DNA of 64,000 nt, from contig OZ316891.1 of assembly GCA_973895155.1 (NCBI GenBank), positions 24,427,899-24,491,898 of the forward strand, read 5' to 3'. The notes under the pieces are model-generated. The model had not been told where the DNA came from. It ran no database searches and saw nothing but the letters and a program-made list of their open reading frames with translations. This document shows positions 3,936 through 58,250 of the stretch, piece after piece (position 1 is the first letter of the stretch; each line of letters opens with the position of its first letter). This DNA is from Marsupella aquatica. Its lineage: Eukaryota; Plantae; Marchantiophyta. The position numbers were made by a program, and so were the translations under genes.

Positions 3936-3990
3936 GAGGTACACAACTTCATCAGTTATCAGTGACTTTCATCAGTCACTGATATCAATC
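3936..3990 (+). repeat. MULE-1 left terminal inverted repeat (short, degenerate, ATCAGT-rich)
   Basis: Starts GAG directly after the 9-bp TSD; core TCATCAGTTATCAGTGA shared with the termini at 25160, 41350 and 44565. Confidence 0.85.
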
Positions 3991-4339
3991 TGTGCCCGAA
4001 ACTCAGCGACGCCGCCGACATAGACTTAATTCACACCCACAGTCAAACCCTATGTCGGAGTCCACTCCGACATTGTTTTGGTTCGGACAATTAGTAATGT
4101 CGGCTGCCTCTCTGACCATCGTGGTGCCCTTTCTAACCATCTTGGCGCCCTCTCTGAGATATCCTTGGAGTGTTGTTCCATCTCGGCTGAGCTCGCCAAG
4201 ATGAAAACATACCCAGCAACGTGTACAACATAGCATATCAAATAGGAGCCACATTAAGAACGTTTGGATGACACACTTTTTATTAAACTTTGTACTTTAC
4301 AACGATGTTGTCTATCTCAATTTTCTGAACTAAATTCCA

Positions 4340-5147
4340 CTAGGCTGCGTCTCCATCTTCCATCCTCTCTACAGGGTAATTGTCTGGCAGACAAGGTCCA
4401 CAACAATCTTTTGCCGCATTGATGTCTATAAGTGCAGGGTCAAAGTTCAGTACGCCGCCTCCAGAAATACGCTCCATGTAGATAATGATATATACACCAC
4501 AATTGTAATCATCCCCTTGACCTGGAATGTTATCTCGGTAAATGCGTGGCCATTCTAAAGGACATAACAAGGTACGACCCCGCAAGATGGAGAGGTCCGA
4601 AAGAAACTGAGCTACTTTGAACACTTCTGTGCCATCCTGTGCTTTGGGCACAAGCGGATCAAGTAAATGCAGTTGCCGCAAGGCAGTATCAACCACAACT
4701 AGTACCCAGTGTTTTGGCCGGTAGACGGGGATTAAAACGTACTCGTGCTCCCACATTTGAATGCCCCGCCAATATGCCAACGCTGCGTTGAAGTTATATT
4801 TCGGAGATGTCATCACTTGGTAAAAATGTGTTGGCAATAACATGGCCTTGGGTTTATGAAGGGTTTGTGCTCTTCGTTCCAGTAAAGCAATGTAAGCATT
4901 GATGACGTTGCAAGTGATCCATTTTTTGGCCTCAAGCATTTTAAATGTGCCCTCGTCAAGTGCACGTCCTCGATTGTCACTATGACCTCTTTTTGGTCCG
5001 CCTTGGGGTCCAATGCCTTCTATACTATCGCCAAAAATTTGGATGGTTGCTGTTGTGCGGGCACTCCTTTGTTTGCAAGCCCCACCTCTTTCACTCCTGC
5101 CCGGGGAGTCAGCCCCTCATTCACTGGTTGCTCAGGTCTCTCCTGAG
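4340..5147 (-). pseudogene. Ulp1/peptidase C48 SUMO protease domain (frameshifted), MULE-1 cargo
   Basis: WITCNVINAY, IPVYRPKHWVLVVVD, LLDP and QGDDYNCG (His-Asp-Gln-Cys set); split over ORFs 4813-5013 and 4340-4939; paralog at 25776-26576. Confidence 0.9.
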
Positions 5148-5175
5148 CTGCAATGAAGGTAAATTCATTCAAACA

Positions 5176-5558
5176 TTACTCTTCGGAACTGGAGCTTGAT
5201 AATCTTATACTTACATGGTGAGTTTGGAGACTGTCACTTCCTACCGAGCTACTCTCATCCGATTGAGCTTCTTTTGCCCTATCATCGACAAATTTGAGAG
5301 TTTTCCTTTTTCTCTCTTGTACACAGCGAGGCACTATTTCTTCATGATAGGTATCAGCAGCGTAGCACGGAAGGGTTAACTTCTGCGGCGAGAAATATGC
5401 CAAAGCTTCCTCCCACGCGAGCTTGACAAGCCGTCTGTCCTGGCTGTCCCATTCCGCTGTAGCTGACTCAATAGTCCTGTCGGGAACTGCTACTAAGTTA
5501 TACTTAAATTCAATCAAATAATGTATTGCGCCCAAAATAGACGTAAACAAGAAGGTAT
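5176..5558 (-). CDS. Conserved exon of unknown function between the MTase-like and Ulp1 regions
   Basis: Strong similarity to ORF 26604-26948 (FKYNLVA.PDRT.ESAT.EWD.QDRRLVKLAWEEALA). AG acceptor at 5560-5559 is phase-compatible with the GT donor at 6732. Confidence 0.65.
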
Positions 5559-5586
5559 CTGTCGGGGAAGGTAGTCGACATGGATC

Positions 5587-6511
5587 GACGGATCTCGGAG
5601 AGGCCAGCCGAGATCACTCTTCCTGAGACGGATCTCGTAGAGGCCAGCCGAGATGACTATTCCTGAGATGGATCTCAGAGAGGCCAACCGAGATTGACTA
5701 TTCCTGAGACAGATCTTGGAGACGCCAGCCGAGATGACTCTTCGGTACACGGATCTCGGAGAGGCTAGCCGAGATGACTCTTCGGTACACGGATCTTGGA
5801 GAGGCCAGCTGAGATCACTCTTCCTGAGACAGATCTTGTAGAGGCCAGCCGAGATGACTATTCCTGAGACGGATCTCAGAGAGGCCAACCGAGATTGACT
5901 ATTCCTGAGACAGATCTTGGAGACGCCAGCCGAGATGACTCTTCGGTACACGGATCTCGGAGAGGCTAGCCAAGATGACTGTTCCTGAGACGGATCTCAA
6001 AGAGGCCACCCGAGATTGACTCTTCCTAAGACGGATCTTGGAGAGGCCAGCCAAGATCACTCTTCCTGAGACGGATCTTGGAGAGGCCAACCGAGATGAC
6101 TATTCCTGAGACGGATCTCAGAGAGGCCAGCCGAGATGACTATTCCTGAGACGGATCTCAGAGAGGCCAGCCGAGATTGACTCTTCCTAAGACGGATCTT
6201 GGAGAGGCCAGCCGAGATCACTCTTCCTGAGATGGATCTCGGAGAGGCCAACCGAGATGACTATTCCAGAGACGGATCTCAGAGAGGCCAGCCGAGATTG
6301 ACTCTTCCTGCAACGGATCTTGGATAGGCCAGCCAAGATCACTCTTCCTGAGACGGATCTTGGAGAGGCCAGCCGAGATGACTATTCCTGAGATGGATCT
6401 CAGAGAGGCCAGCCGAGATTAACTCTTCCTGAGACGGATCTTGGAGAGGCCAGCCGAGATCACTCTTCCTCAGACGGATCTTGGAGAGGCCCGCCAAGAT
6501 GACTCTTCCTG
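5587..6511. repeat. 40-bp tandem satellite (~23 units) with higher-order structure, in a MULE-1 intron
   Basis: Unit GACGGATCTCGGAGAGGCCAGCCGAGATGACTATTCCTGA, period 40-41 bp. Confidence 0.95.
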
Positions 6512-6732
6512 AGTTGCATGTAGAGGAATGAATCTTGGCAAGGTCCGCCAACATGCATCTCAAGTTAGGACTTGCCCTCGCTTGTAGAGGAGGCCAGACA
6601 CTATGAATGTCAGCGAGGTCAGCCGACATGCATACATATCGGCGAGGCCGCTGACTTGTATCCCTCTATTGTCAACCATTGCGACGAGCAAGCAAATATG
6701 AAATGAACAACGTCAAACGCCAGAAAACTTAC

Positions 6733-9700
6733 ATGTCGTTGGGAGTACTGCCGGCTTTTTCTTCTTGCGCTTTTCTGGATTGGCTTTTGAACGGACCACC
6801 TCTTCCTCCTCCGGGGAGATCACTCCAACCAGTTGTGCTAGTTGGTCTTGCGCACAAGTTCCGAAGTGAGGATAGGATTCAGTCCCAAACACCATCCGCC
6901 CGCAATTTTCACCCGCCTTGAATATTGCCCCAAACTGTGCGTTGAAAGTGAGGATAGTTGCCCCAGGGTGTGTTGTATATTCGATGATACATTGGAGCGT
7001 TGCTGGCGACAATGTGCCCGCAAAAGGATCGTTAACCTGATTCTTCTTGGATGTATAGTTCATTAGCCCATTCCTACTCTTCATATCGAGCTTTGCACTA
7101 ATTGGTGCCACATCGTCCTTTGGGCATATCTCCACAGCAGATTGAAACCCCCACAGGTCTAGCTTGAGATATTCGCTCTGGATCGGCCAAACATATTCAG
7201 AGGTCAGACTTCCTCAGTTTAGGATAGTAAGTCATTGGAATAAAAAATAAATGAAGAAGTAGGTAATTGATGGGACTTACTCGCTTCCCAGTCCTACCAT
7301 CGTAGGTGGGTGTGTCGTTCCAGATAAAGAAGCTTTCTTTCAACCCCCAGTTGGTATTCTCGTAAACTAATGCATCATAAATGCAAGTTGAGTGCCAAAG
7401 CGAACCACTGTGCACGATGGCAAACAGTCCTTTGGAATCAAGGACATCTCGAGCAAACTCCTGAACCTGGTTCAAGTCGTCCTCCCGGAACGAATTCCAC
7501 AACGGGGTGGACTTACCCTCGACCATACGTGTGTCTGTTCCCATATGTATCATAATTAAATCTGCACCAGTCTTCACTCGCTTCCCCCCTTTTCTCCAGG
7601 CATTTTGACGCAAACCTTCCCGCAATAGCTTTCTGCACCATGAGATCAATTTACTAACTACAGGGGGTTCGGTACCTTCTTTAGCCGCATCAAAAAAAGT
7701 TGTAAATAGATTTGGAGACCACCTAAAATACATGTCTGCTCTGGGAAGACATGGTATTGGCATAAGGACGCCTTACTCCTTCCAACTCTATGTTATCCTC
7801 TTCTCCAAGGGCCTCTTCATCCTCCTCATTTTCCAATGTGGGGTCAGGTTGGATGGTTGTGGGCGGAACCTCTCCAGTGCCGGGCGGGGGAGGCGACTCA
7901 GTGGGGGAAGGAAGAGGAGGAAATTCCTCGTCACGTGCTTTGCTTGGGCTCCCTTTGGGAGCTCTGGGTCGCCTAGTTTGCTTTCTTTTTAAGGCCTTTT
8001 CCTTTTGCCGTGACAGTAATGGTGGCCGGTAAGGCACAAGAGAGATATCAGACAAGCGCCCTTTGTCTCCGGATTGTCCTTTGTCCTCATCCTCTCGCTC
8101 CTCTTCCTCTTGCTCACCCACATCATCCTCACCTTGCTGCTCGTCAGTCAATTCATCTTGTACTTCAGGAGCCTCATGCGGAGGCAAGTCAAATTCTTGC
8201 AGTGGAGCCTCGTCTGGACCCAACTCAACTATTGGTTGTTTATCCTTGTGCCCTGGACCCTGCAAAACCCCTGGACCGTCCTCAACTGCTGCCTTTGTAG
8301 CCGGCTCTACACCCTTGCTCTTGATAGAATCAGGTTCCGTTTGGATCTCTGCATGACTTGCATAGGATGCAAATTGATGAGCTTCATGATGGCAACTGTA
8401 TCTCGGCGAGCCTCGCCAAGATCGGGTTCATTATATGCAAGCAACTTATTACTCAACTAATACTTCATCTCGGCGAGCCTCACCGACATCTGGACTGGAC
8501 CAGACACTTAATCTCGGCGAGCCTCGCCAACCCAGCCAATGTTTTTTCCAATGCAAGCCACCACCTGATTCGAAAGGAATTGAGTAATACCTGATGGGAT
8601 CTTTGTTGGAGTGCTTATAGAATCTGACTGACTGGCGGATTGTTCCTTGTCGACCTTCTTCTCGCCTCCTTCCTTTCGGGCCTTTTTCCCATCATAGGCT
8701 GGGTCCATTGGGATTATGGCCTCCAACGCTATTGCCTGGGGCATAGAGTCCATCAATTGTCGCAGCTTGGATATATCGTAGTAATTTGTAGGCTCCTGTT
8801 GGTCCTTGAGCTTCATTGCACACTCCTTCTCAGCGTCATCGATAAAAGTATTCTAGTCACGGTATTCCATATACCATGGGCAGTTTTGACGTTCCCAATC
8901 GCAGACTACTCTGCCATTAGGAATTTGGCCATCACATGGATACATGCTAAGGCTCCCTTTCGGCTCCATCCAAGATGTGAGTGCCCATGGCAGCTCTTTC
9001 AATACGGATGCATTCATGTTCTCCTGATTGATTAGAAATCTTGTCACGCACCTCTTTGTTCGCTTTTTCCACAATTCTTTTAACAAGACCGTGGCCTTTC
9101 CGTCAATCCAAATTTCCCCGCCTAGTTTCAGTGATTTCTCTTGCACATAAGCTCGATAAAGCCTTCTGTATAGCTCTGCAAATTCCTCCTCTGTCCCAGA
9201 AAACTCATGGTACATCTGTCTTTGGTAGGCCTTTGCAGCAAAATCGGACAAAATCACACAACCAACGTGGTCAATGTAACACCACATTGACCAGACCGCT
9301 AACCAGGATCTAATTGCAGCATCACCATTGCTATGTGGATGGTGATACATACTCTTCTCCTCCTTCGTTCCAAAATGAGCTTTCAATAGCTTTACTCTGC
9401 ACTCTGCAGTTACCCAAGCCCCAGCAAACAAGCGGACCCTGTCCAAGCCAACCTGTACATTCATCACACCCTGCTTGGCATCCTTTGACAACTTGTGATA
9501 CAGCTGCCGACATACCGGCATGAACTGGTCTCCATTGGCCGGATTCACGCAGGCCGCAAGCTTGGGGAACTTGTTGTCCCAGGCCTTGCATGCAACAATA
9601 ATCATTGCCTCCGTCTCCTCCTCAGTTCTCTTCACACTCCACGGGTGCCCACGAGCTGCGTCTTGTGCCATCTCCTTGGAGATATTGATTCGTCCCGCTT

Positions 9701-10718
9701 CAATGTTTGACCAAGACATGATGTACACAACGGCTTCTTTTGTCATATTCTTCGAGTACCAAGTCTTCCCATGTCCTCGATTTCGGGCCTTCATGAAAGC
9801 CTCCATTGTCTCCTTTGACATGAGCGAACTGTACTCCTCCAATGGAGTGTTCAATAGCTTTGCAACCCGATCAGCGTCATTAAACCAGGACATCTTTACG
9901 ACAGTCGCACTTATCCTGAAAATGACAAACAGTACTCATAGCGGCAATTTCAGAGAGGCTCTCCAAGATGGCACACAAGGTTTACACAAACGGGTACTAA
10001 TCACATTTTGCAAAAAGATGCGCATTGCTTGCTCAACCTTCTTGAATCCGTCCTTCCCAACGTTCAAAAGAGAGAATCTGACGCACGGATGGTATTGCAA
10101 TTGATCCGGATACTCAGAAGCAACTGCGGACCAGGCTGTGTATCTGTGGTTTCCATCAAAAACCCAAAACATCTTGTCCTTAAGGACTTTGAACTCCTCT
10201 GATGCATCGCACTCTTGCTCAAACTGTTCATTGAGTTGAGTCCATAGAGGGTCCCAAAATGGCTTGAAGTCTGTCACTGTCTGCGTTTCTCCAATTTCAT
10301 TGAACTCAGTAATGTGGAACTCGTTGAGCTTCACAACATAGCCGCTCTCTTTGAATCCTTTTTTTAATTTTGCAACCGACTCATCCTGAAGATTCCTCAC
10401 TGCCTCCATTGGCATGAGCCGGCACAAGGGGATCTGGGGTGGATCCTTACTAAACTTTGTCTCATACTTGGAGACGATAGACTCCCAGGCTCCCTTCTCA
10501 GCAATATCAGCCAATTATGCCGCTCCAATAGGCTCAAATGATATCTGCTTTGGCTCAAACTTCCTCCTAGAGTCGACTGACTCCATAAGTGGACCACCCT
10601 GTGAGCGCGTCAGTTGAGACGTGACTGGCGAAGGAGACTTGGATCATGGTTTCTTACTCCGCTGAGAAATTTGGCTGTCGGCAGGTCCAGCTCCAGTCGA
10701 GTCTTTCCTCTTTGGCAT
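6733..10718 (-). pseudogene. Multi-exon MULE-1 cargo gene: ParB-like N-terminal domain, helical region, acidic/Pro linker, degenerate beta-class N4/N6 DNA methyltransferase-like domain
   Basis: FWVFDGNHRYTAW (ParB-type DGxHR). ADLIMIHMGT..FARDVLDSKGLFAIV..FFIWN and LQCIIEYTTHPGATILTFNAQFGAIFKAGENCGRMVFGTE match the layout of N6_N4_Mtase motifs. In-frame stops near 10645 and 10516; collinear paralog in MULE-2. Confidence 0.7.
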
Positions 10719-11309
10719 TTAGATTACATGAGAAATGAAAGAGTTATTACTCGGCAATAGCTCGACCTATAAACCTGACAAGATCTTAGCGAGCCCCGCC
10801 GAGAGAGCCAGTTTTCAAGGATACGCGGGGTCCAGCCTATCACACATTTGATTCATCTACAAATGGATTTTACATATCAAGAAAAAGGGGGAGCCAAGAG
10901 AAAAACCTGAGAGAATCACCAACGTTCACGGCAAATCACTGTCGCAAATGCTCACAAGAAAATGTTGCCTAAACGCTCACGAAGAAGCTACCACACGCTC
11001 ACTGCCTCAAAACACCAACGCAATCCAGTAGACACAATAACAGGGTTGCACAGGAGAGTTTACCGTGAGTGGGACGACTGAAGAAGAGCAGGAACAACGC
11101 GGATGTGAGCGCGGAGAAGTGAGAGATTGCACAAGACCAATATGCAAAGATTGAGGAAGAGCACAGATTAGAGCGCGAACGAGTAAGGGACGCAAAAGAG
11201 TGAGGTAGAGTGAGAAGGTCCGGGGATTAGTGATAAAGACGAGCGCCAAACCTAAGGTGTCACACCGTGGAAGAGTGACGAGGAAGGAACGACATCCACT
11301 TCAAGGAAT

Positions 11310-11420
11310 AACGTACCGCACATACTGCACAACACTAAAGTACGCAATAGATACGGGAGATCCTAACTATATTTCAATACGTACATGTTAACGGCCCAAA
11401 CAAGAAAGTACACAATGCTA
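11310..11420 (-). promoter_or_regulatory. GTAC-rich upstream module of the ParB/MTase-like gene
   Basis: ACGTACCGCAC..GATACGGGA.ATCC.AACTATA..GTTAACGG.CCAAACAAGAAAGTAC also found at 49600-49710 and, inverted, at 57450-57630. Confidence 0.55.
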
Positions 11421-11729
11421 ACGCGAGTACTGACCACCACTAGTACGAGAGAGTTTAGGGTACATTTAGGGTACAATTAGGGACTTTGGCCTACAACTCA
11501 AATGAGTCCGAATGTAGGAGACCCTTGTTGTCATTTCATTCCGAGGCCTACTAAGACGTGTCAACATCTCGGTGCGTCAGCTCAAAGAGGAAATGGTTGC
11601 CCACATGCATTATCATTTGGGTGGCTTAACTAAAAGAGGAAATTGGGGTTAAGAGAAGGGGGAAGAGCACAAGTCAACAAGATCAAGGAGGGTTTGTTGG
11701 AGGAGACTTAATAAAGGCGGCCAATTATG

Positions 11730-11750
11730 TTTAGGGTTTAGGGTTTAGGG
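11730..11750 (+). repeat. Short interstitial plant telomeric repeat / telo-box (TTTAGGG)x3
   Basis: TTTAGGGTTTAGGGTTTAGGG; similar runs near 24600, 24901, 25136, 44341, 49758 and 57129. Confidence 0.85.
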
Positions 11751-11835
11751 TAAAATATGAGAAGTAGAAAAAAGTCCAACACTCTAGCGAACTTCACGGT
11801 AGAAAAGTACGCTTCTTGGGTCAAAAAGGTCGCCA

Positions 11836-12430
11836 GCCTCTCGGAGACCCTCTCTGAGATGGAGTCGTGGGCCAGATGACACCACTTATGGACCCTGTTA
11901 ACAGTTTCAAAGGGTTAGCTACAACATACACTGTCTCTCAGAGACCCTCTCAGAGATGAAATTAAGGGTATTCTATTTCAAAGGAAGGACTCAAAATGGT
12001 TCTATCCAACATCCGATGTCAGAGACCCTCTCTGAGATGGAGTGGTGTGGCCCGAACGGCCAGACGACAAAAATTGTCAATCGCGTCTTGGGTGGAAAGG
12101 GAAGCGAGATTGCAACCCAATCGCTCGGAGACCCTCTCTGAGATGGAGCCGTGTGCCCCAAGTGGCCAGAGAGCAGTTCTCCCAGATCGCATATTGGGTC
12201 AGAAAGGTCGCCAAATGAGACCCAGCCTCTCGGAGACCCTCTCTAAGATGGAGTCGTGGGCGTAATTTGGCCAGATGACACCACTTGTGGACCCTGTTAA
12301 TAGTTTCAAAGGGTTAGCTACAACATACACTGTGTCTCTTAGAGACCCTCTCCGAGATGAAATTAAGGGTATTCCGTTTCAAATGAAGGACCCAAATTGG
12401 TTCTATCCCACATTCGATGTCAGACCCTCG
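11836..12430. repeat. Internal duplication (~190-bp copies at about 11836-12030 and 12225-12420) plus palindromic motif copies
   Basis: Near-identical GCCTCTCGGAGACCCTCTCT.AGATGGAGTCGTGGGC..GACCCTGTTAA.AGTTTCAAAGGGTTAGCTACAACATACAC blocks. Confidence 0.85.
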
Positions 12431-12639
12431 CCAAAATACAAGGATGAACCCAAAAGTGCATGCAAAAACTGACCGTACAGTACTTTTCAATGTTTTTACA
12501 ATGTAATTTTGTATGGATCGCGTGTCCGTACAAATCTACCATCTCAGAGAGGCTCGCCGAGTACAAATGCTGTTGCCCAAATGACCCGAGTCCATCTCAG
12601 AGACCCCCACCGAGAATAATTTAGGGTGGAAACTAAATG

Positions 12640-13447
12640 TCAAAGACCCTCGCCGAGTAGGATTCTAGGTAAAAGTAAATGACACTCAGCAACCGAGGAA
12701 GTCCCTAATCCACCACAGAGAGGCTCGCCAGATAGCGCGACCGCATGCCAGAGACCCTCGCCGAGTAGGATTCTAGATAAAAGTCTATGAGAATCCATCT
12801 CAGAATCTCGGAGACCCCCGCCGAGAATGACTTGGGATGAAAAGTAAATGACACTCAACGACCAAGGAAGTCCCTAATCCACCACAAAGAGGCTCGCCAG
12901 ATAGCGCCACCGCATGTCAGACACCCTCGCCGTGTAGGATTCTAGGTAAAAGTCTATGAGAATCCATCTTCGAATCTCGGAGACCCCCCCCCGAGAATGA
13001 CTTGGGATGAAAAGTAAATGACACTCAACGACCAAGGAAGTCCCTAATCCACCACAAAGAGGCTTGCCAGATAGCGCGACCGCATGTCAGACACCCTCGC
13101 CGAGTAGGATTCTAGATAAAAGTCTATGAGAATCCATCTCAGAATCTCGGAGACCCCCGCCAAGAATGACTTGGGATGAAAAGTAAATGACACTCAACGA
13201 CCAAGGAAGTCCCTAATCCACCACAAAGAGGCTCGCCAGATAGCGCGACCGCATGTCAGACACCCTCGCCGAGTAGGATTCTAGGTAAAAGTCTATGAGA
13301 ATCCATCTTAGAATCTCGGAGACCCCCGCCGAGAATGACTTGGGATGAAAAGTAAATGACACTCAACAACCAAGGAAGTCCCTAATCCACCACAAAGAGG
13401 CTCGCCAGATAGCGCGACCGCATGTCAGAGACCCTCGCCGAGTAGGA
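12640..13447. repeat. 169-bp tandem array (4 full units plus partials) upstream of the MULE-1 transposase
   Basis: GA(G/C)ACCCTCGCCG recurs at 12751, 12920, 13090, 13259 and 13428. Confidence 0.95.
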
Positions 13448-14379
13448 AGTCGAAAGGCTATTTATTCATCCTTCAAGTCAGGCATATTTGCAAAGGGGAT
13501 TATAAGCCACACGACGGAAGAAGAAGAAATGTTTTAGGCAAGGCCGGACGGAATCTTGGAGAATATACTACATCCCTAGAGTTTGCATGTACCTTCTTGG
13601 CGGCTGCTGGCAAATATGTACCTTGTACATGTGTAGAATCTGTACCTTCTTGGCGGCCGCTAGCAAATAGGTACCTTCTTTGTGGTACAATTGTTATATG
13701 TACGCTCCGGATTCTACAATCGTTATATGGTATGCACGTTGTCCAGAACGGTATTCTTGGCGTAAAGTATGGGTACTTTAACGTCTGATGTACCGCCCAA
13801 GTTCTAAGCCTGAAAGTGCGGTATTATTGGCATAAAGTGGTACGAAGATTTTAACGTCTGATGTATAAAGCCGAAGGCCTGGGGACTAACATTCCCAGTG
13901 TGGATTTGGGACACATGGCTTCTCTTGTGATAATCCGATCAGTAACCGGGGATGTTGTTGTTTTTCATCAGATTGAGGGAGACAGTGTTCGAGTCACTAA
14001 GGAGCATGAAGTAGCAAGCCAATTTGGTTTGAAGGTAGGGGATTTCATGATTTACGAGGAGAGAGAAGATGGGCTATCCACTTCTGCTGAATCCAAAGGC
14101 GATGAAGATGAGCGAGAGTGGTATCTGAAATGTGGCGTGTCCTATACTATCTGCAAAAAGAAAGCAAGTTCATGCAATGTTAGTGAGGGTCTTGGAGATT
14201 TTGTGCACTCCCCACAGATTGATGAACCGGGTGAATTATGGAACAATACACCGTGTCAGAAATCGTCCCAATTTTGGGAGGACATTCACCGAGTTGGTAG
14301 ACCCCACTCAAATTCGTCGCCAGTGTGGCAGGATGTTGGAGAGGCAGATGAGCTAGTGAAGGAGACACCTCGACCCAAC

Positions 14380-14960
14380 GCAATCAATCTCAGAGGGGGT
14401 CTTCGACATGGTGAACCTTCTCGATTGAGTACACCTCGGTCAAATTCATTCCATATGTGGGAAGATGTTGGAGATGTGGATACACCAGTGAAGGAGAAAC
14501 GTCGATCAAGTGCATTCAATCTCAGAGGGGGTCTTCGAGATGGTGAACCTCCTCGGACAAGTACACCTGGGTCCAATTCATTCCAAATGTGGGAGGATCT
14601 TGGAGATGGTGATACACCAGTGAAAGAGAAACCTCGATCAAGTGCATTTAATGTCAGAGGGGGTCTTCAAGATGGTGAACCTCCTCGGACAAGTACACCT
14701 GGGTCCAATTCATTCCAAATGTGGGAGGATCTTGGAGATGGTGATACACCAGTGAAAGAGAAACCTCGATCAAGTGCATTTAATGTCAAAGGGGGTCTTC
14801 GAGATGGTGAACCTCCTCGGACAAGTGCACCTGGGTCCAATTCATTCCAAATGTGGGAGGATCTTGGAGATGGTGATACACCAGTGAAAGAGAAACCTTG
14901 ATCAAGTGCATTTAATGTCAGAGGGGGTCTTCAAGATGGTGAACCTTCTCGGACGAATAC
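14380..14960 (+). repeat. 120-bp (40-aa) coding tandem repeat in the transposase N-terminus
   Basis: Repeated LRDGEPPRTSTPGSNSFQMWEDLGDGDTPVKEKPRSSAFNV in ORF 13861-14901. Confidence 0.9.
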
Positions 14961-46699: not shown

Positions 46700-48170
46700 G
46701 CGAAGTTCCATTCCGGCGAGGGTCACTACATCCGGTTTCAGTGCCATTTCGGTGAGGGTCGTTGACATCCAGTTTCAGTGCCATTTCGGCGAGGGTCGTT
46801 GACATCCGGTTTTAGTGCCATTCCGGTGAGGGTCGCTGACATCCGGTTTCAGTGCCATTTTGGCGAGGGTCGCTGACATCTAGTTTCAGTGCCATTTCGG
46901 CGAGGGTCGCTGACATCCGGTTTCAGTGCCATTTTGGTGAGGGTCGTTGACATCCGGTTTTAGTGCCATTCCGGCGAGAGTTGCTGACATCTGGTTTTAG
47001 TGCCATTCCGGCGAGGGTCGCTGACATCCGGTTTTAGTGCCATTCCGGCAAGGGTCGCTGACATCTGGTTTCAGTCCCATTTTGGCGAGGGTCGCTGACA
47101 TCCGGTTTCAGTGCCATTTCGGCGAGGGTCGCTGACATCCGGTTTCAGTGCCATTTTGGTGAGGGTCGTTGACATCCGGTTTTAGTGCCATTCCGGCGAG
47201 AGTTGCTGACATCCGGTTTTAGTGCCATTCCGGCGAGGGTCGCTGACATCCGGTTTCAGTGCCATTTCGGCGAGGGTCGCTGACATCTGGTTTCAGTCCC
47301 ATTCCAGTGAGGGTCGCTGACATCCGGTTTCAGTGCCATTTTGGCGAGGGTCGCTGACATTCGGTTTTAGTGCCATTTCGGCGAGAGTTGCTGACATCCA
47401 GTTTTAGTGCCATTCCGGCGAGGGTCGCTAACATCCGGTTTCAGTGCCATTTCGGCGAGGGTCGCTGACATCCGGTTTCAGTGCCATTTTGGTGAGGGTC
47501 GTTGACATCCGGTTTCAGTGCCATTTTGGTGAGGGTCGTTGACATCCGGTTTTAGTGCCATTCCGGCGAGAGTTGCTGACATCCGGTTTTAGTGCCATTC
47601 CGGCAAGGGTCGCTGACATCCGGTTTCAGTGCCATTTTGGCGAGGGTCGCTGACATCCAGTTTCAGTGCCATTTCGGTGAGGGTCGCTGACATCCGGTTT
47701 CAGTGCCATTTTGGTGAGGGTCGTTGACATCCGGTTTTAGTGCCATTCCGGCGAGAGTTGCTGACATCCGGTTTTAGTGCCATTCCGGCGAGGGTCGCTG
47801 ACATCCGGTTTCAGTGCCATTTCGGCGAGGGTCGCTGACATCTGGTTTCAGTCCCATTCCAGCGAGGGTCGCTGACATCCGGTTTCAGTGCCATTTTGGC
47901 GAGGGTCGCTGACATTCGGTTTTAGTGCCATTTCGGTGAGGGTCGCTGACATCCAGTTTCAGTGCCATTTCGGCGAGGGTCGCTGACATCCGGTTTTAGT
48001 GCCATTCCGGCGAGGGTCGTTGACATCCGGTTTCAGTGCCATTTTGGCGAGGGTCGCTGACATCTGGTTTCAGTCCCATTCCGGCGAGGGTCGCTGACAT
48101 CCGGTTTCAGTGCCATTTTGGCGAGGGTCGCTGACATCCGGTTTCAGTGCCATTTTGGCGAGGGTCGCTC
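46700..48170. repeat. 37-bp tandem satellite (~39-40 units)
   Basis: Unit GACATCCGGTTTCAGTGCCATTTCGGCGAGGGTCGCT, contiguous, no spacers. Confidence 0.97.
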
Positions 48171-48497
48171 AGATCCGACAAATGGCGAATGTCTCCAAGG
48201 TGAGTAGCGTTCACGAACACTACATCTTGGAGACCCTCGCTGAATTCCAACGGTGCCGTTTGGATGTCGGCGAGGCCGCTGGGAGGGAAAAAAGACCACA
48301 CCAATAGTACGATAACGTAAGCTTTTTTATTATTGAAAAATGTCGTACAAAATTAGTCCATGATACTACCCCTGACCTCATTACTACGTGATGAGTTCAA
48401 GTCATGACATGACCTAGTGGCCAGTGGACCCTATCGACAATGCTATCCGCGATGACCTCCTATGCCTTCACAGTCAAATATCACTAGAATAAAGCCC

Positions 48498-49184
48498 TTA
48501 GCCACTGTCCGGATTGTTGCTCGGCAATTTTTCTACATTGTCACACCATAAGATTGGGGTTAACCTGTTCTCCACCCAGTCCTGGACTCTTCCTAGCACA
48601 TCTCCATCGAAGAACTTATCATACAGATCCCTCTCAATTATCTCCGTCCTCCAGACGTAGTTTGCCACCCAAGACTTGAGTGATGTAACTGACATCATAG
48701 AGAGGGCATCAATAGGCGGAATTTGTCGTAAGAGAACACGGAACGTACACGCGGTTGAGTGACGATTCCAATGTCGGTTATCGTCCATGTTTTCAATGAC
48801 GTCCTTCACCACTTTTAACGCTGCCCATCCCTTGGAGTGAGTCACGAGGAATCTCCATTTCCTGCTAACTCTGGACAATATGCGCATGTTGTCGATCGTC
48901 TTGAAGGTAGCATCATCATCAGTGCCATGTGCATTTGCAGACTCAAATGCATTTCTAAGTAGAGGCCAAACATGTCCCTCTGTCAGCATATCCGGGAGGC
49001 CAGGGATGAGACTCTGCCTTTTTGCTTCTTCTGCTTCCTCCGGAATAGGCTCCCCAATACTCCCCCATATTGAGAGCCGATCAAAATCAGCTTTCAATTT
49101 CAGCTCAGTAATTGTCGCCGTAAACTTATCAAGGTGTGTAGCGCACTTTTCATGATAATGCCTCTTCGTGTATGATCCTTCCAT
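48498..49184 (-). CDS. F-box-like small protein type A (MULE-2 cargo)
   Basis: SLIPGLPDMLTEGHVWPLL..LSRVSRKWRFLV; collinear with 42199-42927. Confidence 0.68.
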   Translation of the reverse strand: MEGSYTKRHYHEKCATHLDKFTATITELKLKADFDRLSIWGSIGEPIPEEAEEAKRQSLIPGLPDMLTEGHVWPLLRNAFESANAHGTDDDATFKTIDNMRILSRVSRKWRFLVTHSKGWAALKVVKDVIENMDDNRHWNRHSTACTFRVLLRQIPPIDALSMMSVTSLKSWVANYVWRTEIIERDLYDKFFDGDVLGRVQDWVENRLTPILWCDNVEKLPSNNPDSG

Positions 49185-49972: not shown

Positions 49973-50701
49973 CTAAAAGTTGTCACGATTGACACTTACA
50001 CCTTGATCAAGTCTTTCCTGAACCTGCTCAATGTACCAATTATCAAGACGAGTCCTTTTCCAAGCATCTACTCGTTCTTGCTGAACACCATATATCGACA
50101 GATAACAGTCCGCTTCCTCCGAATCACATAATAACCAGGAATCAATCCTCTCATTTAAGATATCATCAGCCAACCGAGCCCAAACATCAATCGATGGGAA
50201 CGCTCTCATTGACTCACGAAAGAAGTGAGGTGTCAATTCAGGCCATCTTGTGGCACAAAATATCACAGCAGTAGTCATTGCAGCCCATGCTATGGAGTGT
50301 GTTATCAAATATCTCCATTTCTTGTTGATATGCGCAACAGACCGCACCATCAGGCACATATTCCTCACTGGAGCATCCACAAGCACAACATCTTCCAACA
50401 TTGATCGGATCCGGGGCCATATGTGCAACTCCACAAGATCATCAGGCAATCCCGGAATCAAGTTACCGGCTGGAGGGCGACATCGTAGGGGATAACGAGA
50501 GGAGGGGAGATTCCAGATGCGAGCACGGTCTTGTTCTTTACTAGCAAGAAGCGTCTGCAATTCCGATGTAAGCCTTTCTTGTGTCCTATCAATCACCATC
50601 TCACGTCCGCCTGCACTAGGATCCATAGTTTCGAACAAAGCAACAACCCTCATCCCAAGGACCCAAGCGGATTTAGGGTCGAATCTGAGCCTCGCCAACA
50701 T
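49973..50701 (-). CDS. F-box-like small protein type B (MULE-2 cargo)
   Basis: NLIPGLPDDLVELHIWPRI..VAHINKKWRYLI. Confidence 0.7.
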   Translation of the reverse strand: MLARLRFDPKSAWVLGMRVVALFETMDPSAGGREMVIDRTQERLTSELQTLLASKEQDRARIWNLPSSRYPLRCRPPAGNLIPGLPDDLVELHIWPRIRSMLEDVVLVDAPVRNMCLMVRSVAHINKKWRYLITHSIAWAAMTTAVIFCATRWPELTPHFFRESMRAFPSIDVWARLADDILNERIDSWLLCDSEEADCYLSIYGVQQERVDAWKRTRLDNWYIEQVQERLDQGVSVNRDNF

Positions 50702-50943: not shown

Positions 50944-53900
50944 TCAGACGATATTGGCATTTGCTACAAGGCCGCGGACCTCAGTTAGAGTCAAGATAGG
51001 TTGGTTTACACATTGATCCGTGTCAATGTCCCTTTTACAGATGTTTGCAAAGCACCAGTACAAGTGCTTGCACGGGAAGTAGGCTCTTCCCATCGACTCC
51101 CTATACATGAAATCCTTGCAGGAGCAACTTGGGAAGACACAGATCTGGACGCAATGTACTGAAGTTTGCCCCCTGCTAGTGTTGTTCACCATGAGCCTTA
51201 TGCCGGTAGCATTCCCTGTTTCAATTCTCCTCATTGACGTGCACACAATGGCCTTGGTCTTAGCATTTTGGATACGTGCTAATGCATCCTTGGGGGGGTC
51301 TGACCTCCTTCGCCTTGCCTGGCCATTGCGGCGAGTACCATGATCGTCAGGCCTTGTAGGATCTGGCCGCTCTGGGTATGTGTTCAAATCCATGATGATG
51401 TCGCCAACACTCACTACCTCATTCATAACATCACCACCAGAAATGACATCCACTCCATTGTTGTGCAGGAAAATAACCTTTGCTTCTGTAAGATTAGTAC
51501 CACGAGAGACCGAAAACTTTGAAGGCAGTGGTGGTAGCACGCCGGTAATGAAAGGCAAAGAGGATTTTGTGCAACACTGGTTGTTCGGACAAAACCAATA
51601 CGGATATGGAACACCTGGTTCATTAAATTTACTCCCCGCCAGCCAACAAATACCAACAACACCCAATCCGCTCACTTTCAATCCTGCCTCTCTAATAAAT
51701 CGAGCACATACTCCCCGTTCCTTGCCTTTGAACGCACCTCTACAACCGGGACTCTTACCACATGTTGAGATGCGGGCCAGAAATAACGTCCCTGGCACCA
51801 AATCAGTTTCTTGAACATGTCTTCTGATGGGCTCCAGACGTGGGGTTGACCTTGTCGTCCGTTGGAGAGGTTCCACAATGACAACTTCAGGCTCGCCCGA
51901 GCCACTACCGCCATCAGAAGACAGATCCACAACTTCAGGATCTGTGCTTTTTAAGGTTGTGTCCCTGTTTGCAACCCCCTTGAACTTCCTCTTCTTTGGT
52001 CTCGTTACCAGAACAATGTCAGGCCTGTGTGAATCTTCTACTACCACATGAGCGCCAGATACGGCCTTCCCGCACTTCATAGAAACCGTTTCTACATCTC
52101 CGCTAAGTGGGTCCGCCGACGAGAACTTACGCAATTCTGGTTGAGTTATAACTGTGTTCAATTTTGAACAGAAAGATTCCACATTCCCAACAGCAGTAGC
52201 GTCTCGAAGTCGGAGTTCAAATAGGCTCGGTCCCCGCCCTTTCCTCCCACTGTGTTGGTAGTGCTCCAAAGATGCAACCTGGCTCAATGCTCGAGTTGCA
52301 TCTAAGTTACAGGACTGTACTAACCCAACCTTTCTATTAGAGGACCATTTCCGCATGACCGCATGCACCGACTCTGCCCCGCTGTGGTTAGGCATCAGCG
52401 CAGCCTTTTCTCTGTCCATCTCCTACAATTTCCAAGAAGAATGTCAATACAATTGGAAACATATCTCGGCGACCGCCGCCGATATTTGACAGAAAGCGTT
52501 ACAGACAGAGGTCGTCCAATTGAACATCCCTTCAACTGACCCCATGTCAGCGAGCTTCGCCGAGATTTGACAGATTTCATGCATATAGAGGAAAAGCGTT
52601 AGACACTTACGAGTCTCAAAAAATTTCCCCATTGAGAAAACCGAACAATCCACCAAGACATCCACATTGTGAGCTCCTTCGCTTTTCCGGGTAGCGCGTT
52701 GCCCTCGCTCCACCACGTCTTAAGCTTCTCAAAAACTCGAAATGCAAGAACTATGTTGCCGGCATGTCGAAGCGAATCTAGAATTTCCTTATGCTCAAAT
52801 CTCTTATGTGGGACAATGTGCTTCTGCACCCTCTCCACTGATTGGGCCCAGTGAAACGCATCAGAACTCTCTCTATGGGTATTTACCTTTCCATCCCAAA
52901 ATTCATTGTGGATTGCATTCCACCCAGCAGCAGCATTATCAGCCATAAAGCCACAAAATTCAACATTGATAAGCCCATGTTCTCCACACACCCTCCTCAT
53001 GACCTTCCATGCAGTTTGTAATGCCGCACTATCTTCTGAAACCAGCTCACAAACAAAGATTGTGCACAGGCCCCGATAGAAATGGTCATACACGTGTGCT
53101 GACATGGTGCACCATTTGTTGTCAAGTATATGATGCATCACATCAGACATCACCCATGAATGCTCGAGATCCCCGCTGCATTCTTCGAACAAGGTCCACC
53201 CCGGAACCAGGACCTTCTGTACTCATTTTAAAAATGTGCGGTCGCTCGTCTGTTCCCACGTTCTGGGATGGGAACAAAACACTTTGGATAAACGGAAAGG
53301 CAGTCACCTTCCGCATCTCCAGTATCATGTTAAGATCAGATGACACATGACTGTACTTCTTGATGCTCCTGATCATAGAGCGAAAAACGGATTCATCACC
53401 GAGGATGGACAACATTTCATTAAGGTCTCTTGCCTCCTCAGATGTCACCATTTCAGCCACTGGGTCTTCAAGGATATCTTTAAGTTTCTGTATTGCCTCG
53501 CCCTTGATAACAGACGGCATAGCAGTTGGACTCCTCTTCAGCTCCACCTCCACAAGATTGCGCACAACTGATCGTTGATCCTTGTTATGCGTGAACATTG
53601 CAGGATGGGTGTGATTTCCTATATGCATCGCAACACGAGACTTGTGACAATAATTCACGTCATCCTTGGTTGGAGTGATATAGTACATCTCACTTGGGCA
53701 TCGAGCTATACACCTGGGAGGCCTCTTGCAGTACGTACAAATTACACTCGACGGGGTAACATCGCGTCCAACAGGGAAAGGTAGCTCATTTGTGCCTGCT
53801 CGATCTCGGGTCCACTTTGCAGAATTGTGCTCTTGTCGCTGTTGAAAATTTTCACAATCCTCATGCAGACATCGCAGAGAACCCAAACACTTGACACTTT

Positions 53901-55121
53901 GGATCTTGTACGAGTGACTATTGTTGTTCAGCTTTGGGCCAATGTTTGCTCCTGTCTCAATTAACCGGCTCCACATGTAACAATCGTTCTTGCGCTCCAT
54001 CCCAAAGAAGAAACAACCCTTAGAGTATGGACCAGTAAAGGGTGGCAACTCAAAAATATGGTCTCCATCATAGAATTCTGGCAATCGCAGAACTCTCTCG
54101 GGCAATTTCATGCTCAAAATCTTACAAGCAACTTGTACACAACGAGAGGTCCCTTTTCCGTGCAACATGGCATGAACAACACTGACAAGGAACTCATCCT
54201 TCCATACCGAATCACCATCTTGGAGACCCTCGCGGAGGATGGATGCCTTTGAACGAGGTGTCTCCTTTGGTTGACGATAACAAGCTCCACGATCCTCCCA
54301 GAATTGGGATGTGTTTGACTGAGGTGTATTCATTGGTGAAGGTTCACCATCTCGAAGACCCCCTCTGACATGAATCCCACTGGATCGAGGTGTCTCCTTT
54401 GGTGGAGTATCACCATCTCCGCGATCCTCCCACATTCGAAATGAATTCGACCGAGGGGTACTCGTCCGAGAAGGTTCTTCATGTCGGAGACCCTCTTTGA
54501 CATGGTGTGCACTTGGTATGCACCCCGTCTTTCTGCAGAGAATATAAGACGCGCCATACTTCAGGTACCACTCTCGCTCATCTCCATCTCCTTTGGATTC
54601 AGCAGACGTGGACAACCCGTCCTCGCTCTCCTCATAAATCATGAAATATCACCCTATTCATTAAAAGTGTATTTTATTTTGTTCACTTTTAGGCCTCAAA
54701 ATGTACACTTTTTGGTCTCTAAATGTACACTTTTTAACCCCAAAAGGTATACTATAGTACAATAGTCTACACCTAAATAGTCAATTGTAAACTTGAGGGA
54801 GAAAAAATGAGCTTTACTAGAAGGAGTCTCATCCTAGTTCATTTATAAAAGATGAACATGGTGGTATGTCTGATGGCCATCACTTTTATTTCTTGCCCAA
54901 ATGTACACTTTTTGAAAGCCAAATGTACACTTTCTATTGCCCAAATGTTCACAAATTGAATAATAATTCACTTTTAATGAATAGATTGATAAATCCCCTA
55001 CCTTCAAACCAAAACGGCTCGCTACTTCATGTTCCTTAGTCACTCGGACAATGTCAACGTTAGAATTATGAAAAACAACTACATCCCCCGTTAAAGATGT
55101 GATAATCACAAGAGAGGCCAT
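50944..55121 (-). pseudogene. MULE-2 Mutator-like transposase (GCM-like, DDE, SWIM)
   Basis: Same motifs as MULE-1 (FMADNAAAGWNAI, DAFHW, GAESVHA, CSCKDF..PCKHL). Intron 52610-52423; 5-bp deletion frameshift near 53175; MITE in the first exon. Confidence 0.9.
54648..54990. mobile_element. 343-bp MITE with ~22-bp TIRs and 4-bp TSD AAAT
   Basis: ATCACCCTATTCATTAAAAGTG .. CACTTTTAATGAATAGATTGAT; AAAT at 54644-54647 and 54991-54994; empty site seen in MULE-1 near 14035-14052. Confidence 0.88.
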
Positions 55122-55489
55122 GTTTCCCGAATCCACATAGGGAATGATCTGACATCCCTTAAAACGACAAACTTTGAGGCTCAGCGTTAACGCACCTGTA
55201 CGTACCAGTTACGGCCAAGAATACCGTTCCGGACAACGTGCGTAGAGAAATCGTATGACCCAGAACGATACTTATAACGATACAACGTGCGTAGAATGAG
55301 CGTATGACCCGCAACGTACTTATAACGAGAATTGTACCGCAAAGAAGGTACCTAATTGCCAGCAGCCGCCAAGAAGGTACATTTCTGCAATGTGTGGATG
55401 TGGTACATTCTGCACGTCGTGGTCTTGAAAGTCCCATCGTGCGGGCCCACAATCCCTCGTGCGGGCCCGATCCCCTCTTTGCCCTACAT

Positions 55490-56320
55490 CAACTTTTTAT
55501 CCATACTACTCGGTGAGGGTCTCTGAGATCTATTCGGGACTCCTGGGGCCCACACTCCTGTGCAAGCTCGAGTTTCACAGTAGGAAATTTGTTGACTTTT
55601 CAACATTGACTGTTCAACATCGACTCTCCGAGTCGGAGCATCATCGACTTTTTATCCCTACTCCTACTCGGCGAGGGTCTCTGAGATCTATTCGGGACTC
55701 CTGGGGCCCACACTCCTGTGCAAGCTTGAGTTTCACAATAGGAAATTTGTTGACTTTTCAACATTGACTGTTCAACATTGACTCTCCGAGTCGGAGCATC
55801 ATCGACTTTTTATCCCTACTCCTACTCGGCGAGGGTCTCTGAGATCTATTCGGGACACCTGGGGCCCACACTCCTGTGCAAGCGAGAGTTTCTCAGTAGG
55901 AGATTTGTTGTTTTTGCAACATTGACTGTTCAACATCGACTCTCCAAGTCGGAGCATCATCGACTTTTTATCCCTACTCCTACTCGGCGAGGGTCTCTGA
56001 GATCTATTCGGGACACCTGGGGCCCACACTCCTGTGCAAGCAAGAGTTTCTCAGTAGGAGATTTGTTGTTTTTGCAACATTGACTGTTCAACATCGACTC
56101 TCCGAGTCGGAGCATCATCGACTTTTTATCCCTACTCCTACTCGGCGAGGGTCTCTGAGATCTATTTGGGACTCCTGGGGCCCACACTCCTGTGCAAGCG
56201 AGAGTTTCTCAGTAGGAGATTTGTTGTTTTTGCAACATTGACTGTTCAACATTGACTCTCCGAGTCGGAGCATCATCGACTTTTGATTTCGTCTCTTACT
56301 TGGCGAGGGTCTCTGAGATG
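55490..56320. repeat. 158-bp tandem array (5 units plus partial) upstream of the MULE-2 transposase
   Basis: GAGGGTCTCTGAGAT at 55515, 55673, 55831, 55989, 56147 and 56305. Confidence 0.95.
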
Positions 56321-57419
56321 GATTTCGATGTAGGATTCCCAGATTGCCTCCTTGGTGCAGGTCTACTTCAGAGTTTGGTGTCGGTTGTTTGGAGTGCATA
56401 TCATACTCGGCGAGCCTCTCTGAGATATATTCGAGCATTGTAAAAGAGAGAAAACGCCGGTCTGTACGGATATTTGCAAAAAAAATTGGATTCATGGTAC
56501 GGAGAAGCGTTTCTAGTTCCATAATCCCATTTGGGCGAGGGTCTCCGAGATATATTCGAGCATTGTAGAGGAAAAAACGCCCAATTTGGAGTTGTCGAGT
56601 CATTTTGTACGGATAATTGTAAAAAGTTTATGGATTTATGGTACGGAGAAGTGTTTATAGTTCCATAGTCCCATTTTGACGAGGGTCTCCGACATCTTGG
56701 GTCCCATGGCGGGGGACTAGTGCCTCTCAATTCCATCTCGGAGAGGGTCTCCGAGAGACACGATGCTTGATCTGCCTTACCTTTCCTCCCGTGATATGGT
56801 CCAAGAGTTTAGAGGCATTGCCATTTCATGCACACTACTCCTTCTCGAAGAGGGTCTCTGAGAGTACAAGGTGTCTGAAGTTCTTCATCTCCTAGATAAA
56901 GTGAAGACATTTGGGGCACGCCTTTCTATGTTGGTGAGGGTCTCTAACATGGAGCAGGGGTCTTTTGGATTTAGATTGTCAACTTCCTTGTCCACAATCC
57001 TCTTTTGCGAGTGTCTCAAAACAGGATGACTGCCAGATGTGGCACACCACGCCATCTCGGAGAGGGTCTCCGAGATCTATCGGTGCTGTCTCATTGCAGC
57101 TTTGTATACCCCACCCAAGGGTATATAGGTTTAGGGTTTAGAGGTCTTTGTGAATCCCGCTATCCATTCTCGGCGAGGGTCTTTGAGATTTGGACTCGTA
57201 TTGTGGGCCCCCATTCCCTCTTTGGGACGAGGCTCCGAGATGTTGACACGTCTCAGTATTGGCCCGCTATCCATTCTCGGCGAGGGTCTTTGAGATTTGG
57301 ACTCGTATTGTGGGCCCCCATTCCCTCTTTGGGATGAGGCTCTGAGATGTTGACACGTCTCAGTATGGGCCGCAATTAATTGTTGGCGAGGGTCTTTGAG
57401 ATTTGGACCCTAAATCTCA

Positions 57420-57770
57420 TACCCCCGTACTGGGCCGTAAACCCTAGAACCTTACGTACTTTCTTGTTTGGTCGCGTACTTTCTTGTTTGGCCCGTTAAT
57501 TAACAAGATGTACGTTCTCTAGTATAGTTCGGATCTCCCGTATCCATGTACTTGTGTGCGGTGCGGTACCGGGGATCTCTTGTATCCATGGAGTACTTCC
57601 GTGCGGTGCGGTACGTGCGGTACGAGGGTCCTTCCTTACTCTTCCTCGTCACCGGTGCGGTACGTGCGGTACGAGGGTCCTTCTTCCTTACTCTTCCTCA
57701 TCACTCTTGCTCTTCACGCTTTGTTAGGGCTTTCAACGTCGTTCTCACTTATCCCTGCGCTTCCTCACTC
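57420..57770 (+). promoter_or_regulatory. GTAC-rich upstream module of the MULE-2 ParB/MTase-like gene (separated from it by the inversion)
   Basis: Homologous to 11310-11420 and 49520-49790; followed by a CT-rich 5'UTR-like stretch. Confidence 0.55.
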
Positions 57771-58250
57771 TTCATCATTCACTCCCCGTCTCATTCACTC
57801 CCCGTTATTCCTCACGCATCCTCGCTCTTCCTAGGTCCCCTCCGCTCTTCATCCCAGTCTTCCAATCACGTTGGCTTTCCTCTCTTCCACTTATTCTCGG
57901 CAAGTGTGGCCGTGTGCCCTGGTTTGCGAAGGTGTTTTGAAGGCTTCACCTTGGCGGCGGTCGAGTCTCATAGTTTCAAGCTCTGTGCTGGTTGGCAAAG
58001 GTGATTTGAAGGTCTCAGTTTGGTTTGAGCTCGGCAGCGGTCGACTCTCAAAGTTTCAAGCTTTGTGCTGCAAAGGGTGATTTGAAGGTCTCAGTCGGCG
58101 GTGGTCGAATCACTCTCAGCGGGTTGTAGTTTCAAGCGCGGCGCTTCACCCATCTCCGAGGTTGGATCTTTTGTTCACTGCATGACTGTCTACACGATTT
58201 GAAGGTATGTTGCAAGCTCGACATGTCAAAACTTTTGCTCGGTGGGGCTC

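Follow-up and report, generated by a model that had tools for sequence, protein, structure and literature searches.

Giant Mutator-like elements of the liverwort Marsupella aquatica with a predicted ParB-methyltransferase-like protein and an element-wide palindrome: a candidate self-binding system

Introduction

The window analysed here comprises 64,000 nucleotides of Marsupella aquatica (contig OZ316891.1, positions 24,427,899 to 24,491,898) and contains two giant Mutator-like elements, element 1 and element 2. Both are filled with copies of one palindromic motif and carry, besides the transposase, sequences resembling ParB, DNA methyltransferases (MTases), the SUMO protease Ulp1 and F-box proteins. 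This raises the question whether a protein of the element binds the palindrome and keeps tagged copies unsilenced. For VANDAL elements, a target motif amplified in fast-turning non-coding tandem repeats, introns included, has been described (Hosaka 2017, PMC5735166), and a fusion of VANC and Ulp1, named KIU, is reported for VANDALs in a 2026 review (PMC13317346). According to a preprint on Bostrychia, VANDAL is the sole transposon known to bind and modify its own sequence (bioRxiv 10.1101/2025.02.11.637652). From the evidence given below, binding of the palindrome by the ParB-like protein of the window family appears probable. The overall reading, that a ParB-MTase-Ulp1 protein binds its own palindrome and keeps tagged copies unsilenced, has in our view slightly less than an even chance.

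Results

After subtraction of nested inserts, the two Mutator-like elements measure 18,422 bp (element 1) and about 20,480 bp (element 2). They were collinear by blastn, with the end of element 2 set at 58253 in this comparison, 3-7 bp beyond its true end. The four termini (3936, 25160, 41350 and 44565) share the core G..CATCAGTTATCAGTGA and all point rightwards. Their terminal inverted repeats (TIRs) of about 31 bp are imperfect and begin with G; cognate pairs are identical at 26/31 and 23/31 bases. With an inversion of about 21.7 kb taken into account, the target site duplication (TSD) GGTCACAAA pairs 3936 with 41350 and the TSD AGGAAAAAT pairs 25160 with 44565, each exact at 9/9 bases as reverse complement. 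TSDs of 8-11 bp are described for the Mutator/MULE superfamily (PMC6446971), and two exact 9-bp TSDs as well as TIRs were found here. Elements of 18-20 kb with short TIRs and 9-bp TSDs had been proposed in an initial annotation, and the measured values (18.4 and 20.5 kb) agree with it. Its two collinear elements were found again, but they are not adjacent: element 2 sits within element 1, behind the element 1 transposase, and the inversion splits them. Element 1 lies in turn within a CACTA transposon. Both copies are pseudogenes.

The motif has the 23-bp consensus ATCTCGGMGA-N3-TCKCCGAGAT. It was first described as a 21-bp palindrome saturating both elements; the saturation was confirmed, whereas the 21-mer proved to be the core of a longer site. 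With up to five mismatches, 161 matches were counted in 38,754 bp of element sequence, whereas CACTA, copia and long terminal repeat (LTR)-like DNA, about 25 kb in total, had none; five dinucleotide shuffles gave 0-3 matches each. As the consensus was derived from the same elements, this enrichment arises partly by construction, but the absence from neighbouring DNA does not. Non-coding DNA holds 152 of the 161 copies, and the 9 coding copies are all confined to a 132-bp repeat within the transposase coding sequence (exon limits modelled). The density is 8-9 per kb in non-coding DNA, introns included, versus 0.3-0.6 per kb in exons. All four termini are free of the motif over their first 240 bp, and another word is found in the TIRs.

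Outside arrays there are 40 copies, which occur in either orientation and have a consensus identical between the two elements. No covariation of the arms was detected at these sites (282 paired cells observed, 283 expected). Thus, the motif is more likely read in duplex form by a dimer than folded into a hairpin, and a hairpin or cruciform role was ruled out. A ParB-type dimer is suited to a dyad-symmetric site, as known from parS.

Equivalent introns and intergenic regions of the two elements hold unlike satellites (units of 40 versus 92 bp and of 169 versus 158 bp). A full turnover of the satellites had been claimed. This holds for non-coding DNA, where they are alike over just 23-47 bp around the motif, but not for the 132-bp repeat of the transposase, which is homologous between the copies (76-81% identity). 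This motif-bearing repeat has turned into coding sequence at the transposase N-terminus (14297-15071 and 54212-54515). Alternatively, the palindrome could be a by-product to which nothing binds, satellites arising from it by slippage or recombination. It forms the basis of most arrays, and one copy contains a breakpoint of the inversion, but the 40 dispersed copies share their consensus in two subfamilies with a synonymous divergence (dS) of 0.3-0.8, while the flanking non-coding DNA has diverged. Furthermore, T at position 4 and its partner A are invariant in 40/40 copies, which is partly set by the mismatch filter. A bound-by-nothing palindrome is hence quite improbable.

The gene order common to both elements is Ulp1, MTase-like and ParB-like (minus strand), divergent transposase and two F-box-like genes. 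This order was annotated before and is conserved, but the first three are not separate genes. The ParB-like and MTase-like open reading frames (ORFs) are most likely exons of one predicted gene (about 1,600 amino acids), to which Ulp1 probably belongs as well. For element 2, five GT-AG introns connect six parts to 1,541 codons with one stop, the 5' piece past the insert excluded. At this stop position a sense codon was read at full depth in the sequencing runs X1, X2 and X3. Introns 2-5 have homologous, phase-compatible sites in element 1, with splice sites picked by eye; the element 1 gene is a pseudogene with its first donor deleted, stops and a frameshift. In 13 of 13 homologues of the ParB exon, at most a few residues separate the end from the intron-1 position.

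With HMMER, 84 relatives of the helical exon were found, proteins of 800-1200 amino acids among them. The named ones are 'hypothetical' proteins of liverworts, KAL3677308.1 of Riccia sorocarpa (P0111) and CAM6126174.1 of Calypogeia fissa (P0028), which have the same order of ParB, helical region, linker and MTase (25-43% identity). P0111 (1207 amino acids) contains all four in one chain, and the two MTase exons of the window can be aligned with it over their full length. The fusion of ParB and MTase in one protein is well supported. No longer fusions were found by word-index search; this is weak evidence, since the relatives of 800-1200 amino acids were recovered by the full HMMER search. The Riccia protein, in which the MTase motifs are partly retained in contrast to the window family, stops after the MTase and has no Ulp1. 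Exon 5 or Ulp1 was matched in 0/115 fetched homologues. A fusion of Ulp1 to the ParB-MTase protein, as predicted from the splice sites, is thus probable rather than established. Predicted intron 5 also speaks against the fusion: with 89% identity between the copies, it might instead be the end of the coding sequence, including a stop. The His-Asp-Cys triad of Ulp1 is intact in both copies.

The folds were investigated with models of homologues. For Riccia P0041 the predicted local distance difference test score (pLDDT) was mostly above 90 across residues 190-700. Compared by VIA-align with the nucleotide-binding domains of ParB, Noc and KorB, this model gave Z 8.0-8.9 and root mean square deviations (rmsd) of 2.4-3.4 over about 100 residues; the best ParB match had Z 8.9 and rmsd 2.4 with 99 residues aligned. 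In a wide structure search of 48,161 chains, the top three were ParB-family members (Z 6.8-7.8; KorB Z 7.8). The window ParB exon is 36% identical to the ParB-fold homologue, and the R, DGNHR and N motifs are kept across 18 sequences; element 2 carries DGNRR where other runs read DGNHR. With Foldseek nothing was found at E<=0.001 for the 1191-aa model, the likeness to ParB having come from VIA-align. ESM Atlas gave no usable match, or scores under 0.9 only, and searches of PDB sequences gave weak matches only (RsrI, E 0.31). For the helical region (about 310-720) no clear structural match was found when it was searched within the larger model, not alone. For the exon 1 region a ParB fold is supported by the models.

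A beta-class amino-MTase fold is likewise supported. Against Pfam N6_N4_Mtase the Riccia MTase scored just below cutoff (E 1e-5 to 5e-5; P0111 5e-5). Its low-confidence model (pLDDT 47) matched beta-class CcrM (Foldseek, E 2.6e-7), M1.HpyAVI and MboIIa. The Riccia sequences have DLPTG or DMPSG at motif IV and DFAGGWG, an FxGxG-like word, at motif I. In both window MTases motif IV reads I(Q/H)MG(S/T)D and motif I reads FNA(H/Q)FG; both (D/N/S)PP(Y/F/W) and FxGxG have been lost. With both catalytic motifs lost in both copies, the MTase of the window family is very likely inactive. The pseudo-methyltransferase joined to ParB that had been named before agrees with these models and with the degenerate motifs.

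If intact members were active, they might instead write N6-methyladenine or N4-methylcytosine on the palindrome as an epigenetic self tag. The beta-class fold and the motif IV D and FxGxG-like motif I retained in Riccia point to this, and such a role was proposed for the Ectocarpus gene (PMC12477816). However, even the Riccia sequences are without the aromatic residue of DPPY/SPPY. Both window copies are without motif IV and motif I, and such a loss in two subfamilies under purifying selection indicates a family trait rather than decay. Self-marking by methylation is very improbable. A link to DN4MT1 of Marchantia was also considered and is unsupported: DN4MT1 has TSPPY, and no ParB is described for it in the accessible part of the Marchantia 4mC preprint.

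Selection was examined by Nei-Gojobori comparison of the two copies, with bootstrap intervals and out-of-frame controls. The dN/dS ratios were 0.12 for ParB, 0.27 for the helical region, 0.61 for the linker, 0.42 and 0.27 for the MTase halves, 0.23 for exon 5, 0.54 for Ulp1, and 0.44 and 0.36 for the F-box-like genes. Parts of the transposase gave 0.10-0.32. The bootstrap intervals were below 1 for 13/13 segments, among them 9/9 of the cargo. Out-of-frame controls were mostly about 1 or above, except for an antisense frame that mirrors the codons. Thus, the cargo is not Pack-MULE debris, i.e. neutrally decaying host fragments on non-autonomous elements, which the presence of the transposase also excludes. 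As annotated initially, the cargo almost certainly consists of functional transposon genes. Between the copies dS was 0.27-0.81 and uneven along the element, with 0.6-0.8 in most of the ParB gene and 0.27-0.5 in the transposase, which suggests recombination between subfamilies.

The Zn-rich N-terminal domain of the transposase is conserved (dN/dS 0.15), and motif copies occur in the 132-bp coding repeat of the same protein. Hence, the transposase itself might bind the palindrome, and the ParB-MTase protein would have another role. The transposase of AtMu1c binds its own motif, with hypomethylation and activation as the result (bioRxiv 2026.08.24.746577), a precedent which counts against a role of the ParB protein as binder. 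However, binding of AtMu1 peaks at the TIRs according to this preprint, whereas here the TIRs and the first 240 bp lack the motif, which fills introns and intergenic DNA. Moreover, the perfect dyad symmetry fits a ParB-type dimer. Binding by the transposase is unlikely, but deserves consideration. DDE-type residues of the transposase were recognized by eye: D (MSDV), D (MADN), DAFH and E (AESV). The SWIM domain was matched at E 3 only, and Pfam scans of the window ORFs gave no match to the MULE family.

Further members of the family were looked for in other sequencing runs. Contigs of run X1, 98-99% identical to element 2, span the ParB-MTase-Ulp1 gene, both F-box-like genes and the transposase. 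Runs X2-X5, which bear two organism labels, covered all or nearly all element 2 bins. One X1 contig is without the transposase frameshift. Thus, the family is multi-copy with open-frame relatives, while the two window copies are dead.

The positions of all features are listed in Table 1.

Table 1 Features of the two Mutator-like elements and of their inserts (positions within the window)
Feature	Position	Strand	Remarks
Element 1	3936-25159 and inverted 41350-44564
Element 1 TSD GGTCACAAA	3927-3935	+	partner inverted at 41341-41349
Element 1 left TIR, about 31 bp, ATCAGT sub-repeats	3936-3966	+	nearest palindrome 244 bp inward
Element 1 predicted six-exon ParB-helical-pseudoMTase-Ulp1 gene	4340-10718	-	Ulp1 Pfam E 1.6e-13
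Exons of this gene	~10035-10718, 8591-9915, 7281-8356, 6733-7177, 5245-5489, 4340-5142	-
40-bp satellite, one palindrome per unit	5587-6513		element 1, predicted intron 4
Divergent intergenic region, motif-dense	10760-13450		element 1; includes 169-bp array 12636-13447
Element 1 transposase	13855-24254	+	motif-bearing 132-bp coding repeat, Zn domain, candidate DDE and SWIM domains; interrupted 17670-23686
Nested copia retrotransposon	17807-23686	-	motif-free, foreign to Mutator family; LTRs differ at 3/170 bp
Element 2	25160-36596 and inverted 44565-58246/50
Element 2 TSD AGGAAAAAT	25151-25159	+	within element 1; partner inverted at 44556-44564
Element 2 left TIR	25160-25190	+
Element 2 predicted six-exon gene	25776-36530	-	Ulp1 Pfam E 2.3e-22
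Exon 1, ParB	36448-36530 + 31158-31802	-	divided by insert
Exon 2, helical	29713-31028	-
Exon 3, acidic linker and MTase N-half	28190-29385	-
Exon 4, MTase C-half	27662-28094	-
Exon 5	26679-26920	-	77 codons
Exon 6, Ulp1	25776-26570	-
92-bp satellite, two palindromes per unit	27108-27577		element 2, predicted intron 4; position as element 1 array, unit differs
Nested LTR-like fragment	31803-36447	+	1037-aa ORF; motif-free, foreign to Mutator family
Inverted segment, about 21.7 kb	36593-58250	-	GAGC microhomology at 36593-36596 and 58247-58250
Element 1 right TIR (inverted)	41350-41380	+
Element 1 F-box-like gene 2	42199-42940	-
Element 1 F-box-like gene 1	43531-44150	-
Element 2 right TIR (inverted)	44565-44595	+
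Extra ORF, element 2 only	45377-46090	-	repeated RGRPRK-type words, coiled coil
37-bp satellite, about 40 units, one palindrome each	46704-48177		element 2
Element 2 F-box-like gene 2	48498-49181	-	Pfam F-box E 0.015, below cutoff
Element 2 F-box-like gene 1	49973-50584	-
Element 2 transposase	50944-55100	-	5-bp frameshift near 53174; 347-bp insert 54644-54990
158-bp and 107-bp motif-bearing arrays, dispersed motifs	55487-57408		element 2 divergent intergenic region

The two F-box-like genes are paralogues (about 28% identity) with a weak Pfam match. The RGRPRK words of the extra ORF are presumably AT-hook-like. The 347-bp insert in the element 2 transposase is abundant, is bypassed by contigs of X3 and X4, and may be a miniature inverted-repeat transposable element. 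Very abundant, too, is the nested LTR-like fragment, whose contigs have about 100-fold the depth of those of the element; its 1037-aa ORF matches no Pfam family. Near likely gene starts of both elements, telomere-like TTTAGGG doublets were found (11732, 24600, 24901, 25136, 44347 and 49760).

The inversion has GAGC at both breakpoints and disrupts, besides a copy of the palindrome, the DUF4218 ORF in the host CACTA. In other sequencing runs, contigs of the CACTA continue uninterrupted across the CACTA junction, with loose ends at 36593 and 58247. With its 4-bp microhomology inside a palindrome copy, the inversion is either a natural rearrangement or an assembly error. The host CACTA (58251-64000 and 36597-41349) contains tnp2, DUF4218 and DUF4216. 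Upstream ORFs encode a tandem BRCT (61808-62536, E 3e-12), NSD-type PHD fingers (63253-63960) and an F-box-like protein (61098-61673) of the same type as those of the Mutator elements. It is possibly a second giant transposon with chromatin cargo.

Discussion

The initial annotation regarded the family as a new anti-silencing system. This is overstated, since ParB+N4/N6-MTase accessory genes with an equal self-binding hypothesis are published for giant transposons of brown and red algae. The Ectocarpus element Sola1-1_Ec32 (21.5 kb) carries a gene of 1104 amino acids with ParB and N4/N6-MTase opposite the transposase, for which binding and modification of the element's own sequence were proposed (PMC12477816). 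Like this element, the window family combines a giant DNA transposon with a ParB-like and an amino-MTase domain in one predicted protein on the strand opposite the transposase; the likeness rests on architecture, not on sequence comparison. In contrast, Sola1-1_Ec32 belongs to the Sola superfamily and a brown alga, and neither Ulp1 nor F-box genes, a dead MTase or a motif spread over the whole element is mentioned in the accessible part of its description. In Bostrychia, Plavaka elements of 17-19 kb have a PAG2/PAG3 cassette in which PAG3, with a ParB domain, adjoins inverted-repeat tandem arrays; self-binding was proposed, and homologous accessory genes are reported also on Chondrus Mutators (bioRxiv 10.1101/2025.02.11.637652). 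Size range and the ParB accessory gene beside motif arrays are alike. There, however, according to the preprint, ParB is fused to a 2-oxoglutarate oxygenase, the MTase is a separate gene with SET, the hosts are red algae and the superfamily is EnSpm. By architecture the window family belongs with this ParB+MTase accessory class, both domains being present in the predicted protein. No published land-plant element of such design was found in the open literature; Repbase, subscription papers and supplements could list cases. In the literature searched, the land-plant Mutator context, the dead MTase, the probable Ulp1 fusion, the F-box-like pair and the element-wide palindrome were not found for the class.

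With the VANDALs the family shares the Mutator type, short or degenerate TIRs and an element-specific motif in fast-turning non-coding repeats. The analogy to VANDAL drawn earlier is supported, and is even stronger than claimed, because VANC-Ulp1 fusions (KIU) exist and Ulp1 is here probably fused to the candidate effector. The VANC effector, in contrast, is of the DUF1985/DUF287 type, its motifs of 8-9 bp are non-palindromic and family-specific, and its function is shown, whereas here it is predicted (PMC5735166). No Pfam match to DUF1985/DUF287 was detected in 55 ORFs at E<=0.1 or in 16 ORFs at E<=10. Thus, the sequences are VANDAL/KIU-like in layout, but do not belong to this group. With the bacterial ParB, Noc and KorB proteins acting on parS, and with DndB (DGQHR), the nucleotide-binding fold and its motifs are shared; the large helical region without an established helix-turn-helix and the context of a eukaryotic transposon are different.

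The ParB protein could also bind the palindrome for the sake of transposition. Its clamps would spread, compact the 19-kb element and help to pair the distant short TIRs, and Ulp1 would regulate SUMO on the transpososome. The conserved motifs of the ParB nucleotide pocket agree with this role, as does the recurrence of ParB cargo in giant short-ended elements (Sola1-1_Ec32, PMC12477816; Plavaka, bioRxiv 10.1101/2025.02.11.637652), and a stable motif suits a structural function better than an arms race. However, the retained MTase fold and the F-box-like pair would be left unexplained, and the satellite turnover in non-coding DNA resembles VANDAL (PMC5735166). A role in transposition seems rather unlikely.

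Several results weigh against the protection of tagged copies from silencing by the ParB-MTase-Ulp1 protein. When the ParB and Noc alignments were extended through the DNA-binding domain, rmsd rose to 6.7-15 and no helix-turn-helix was established. The motif is unchanged between the two subfamilies sampled, unlike the fast-changing VANC targets. In the 37-bp array, C-to-T and G-to-A changes occurred at 42/304 CG, 25/266 CHG and 5/266 CHH sites. Of 40 among the 1,364 differences from other runs, 30 lay in element 2; 20 of these were T>C or A>G and were examined, and 19/20 lay at CG or CHG. These transitions indicate that the window copies were methylated at some time. The anti-silencing model is not refuted by this, because VANDAL21 is also silenced in wild type, by RNA-directed DNA methylation (Sasaki 2023, PMC10398659), but it gains no support either. 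The observed/expected CpG ratio was 0.68-0.85 in the elements versus 0.68-0.82 in the nested retroelements. As the latter are equally CpG-rich, CpG retention was ruled out as proof of anti-silencing.

If the ParB-MTase-Ulp1 protein acts against silencing, a dimer would load at the 23-bp palindrome and may spread like a ParB clamp, which is conceivable because the nucleotide-pocket motifs are retained. The dead MTase may add a DNA contact or shield CG and CHG sites in the motif, rather than methylate. Tethered Ulp1 would strip SUMO from silencing factors, as proposed for KIU. The F-box-like pair might target host silencing factors for degradation or serve as SCF decoys, and the satellites would multiply the binding sites as in VANDAL. 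That a complete KIU-like anti-silencing machine with clamp, dead methylase shield, SUMO protease and F-box clearance evolved independently in a land-plant Mutator lineage from a bacterial ParB-parS module is a tentative and, as a whole, doubtful proposal.

If true, a ParB-parS-like clamp would for the first time be seen to act on eukaryotic chromatin. The family would also represent the second sequence-specific anti-silencing system, unrelated to the first and with a candidate site already known. Elements would then have converged on the VANC-Ulp1 design by using prokaryotic parts, and a new sequence-specific chromatin tool would become available. With this family, a sharply delimited candidate site of 23 bp, a cargo protein kept by purifying selection and near-identical open-frame relatives are at hand. 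With homologues in liverworts, which are genetically tractable, the hypothesis of self-binding by ParB becomes directly testable.

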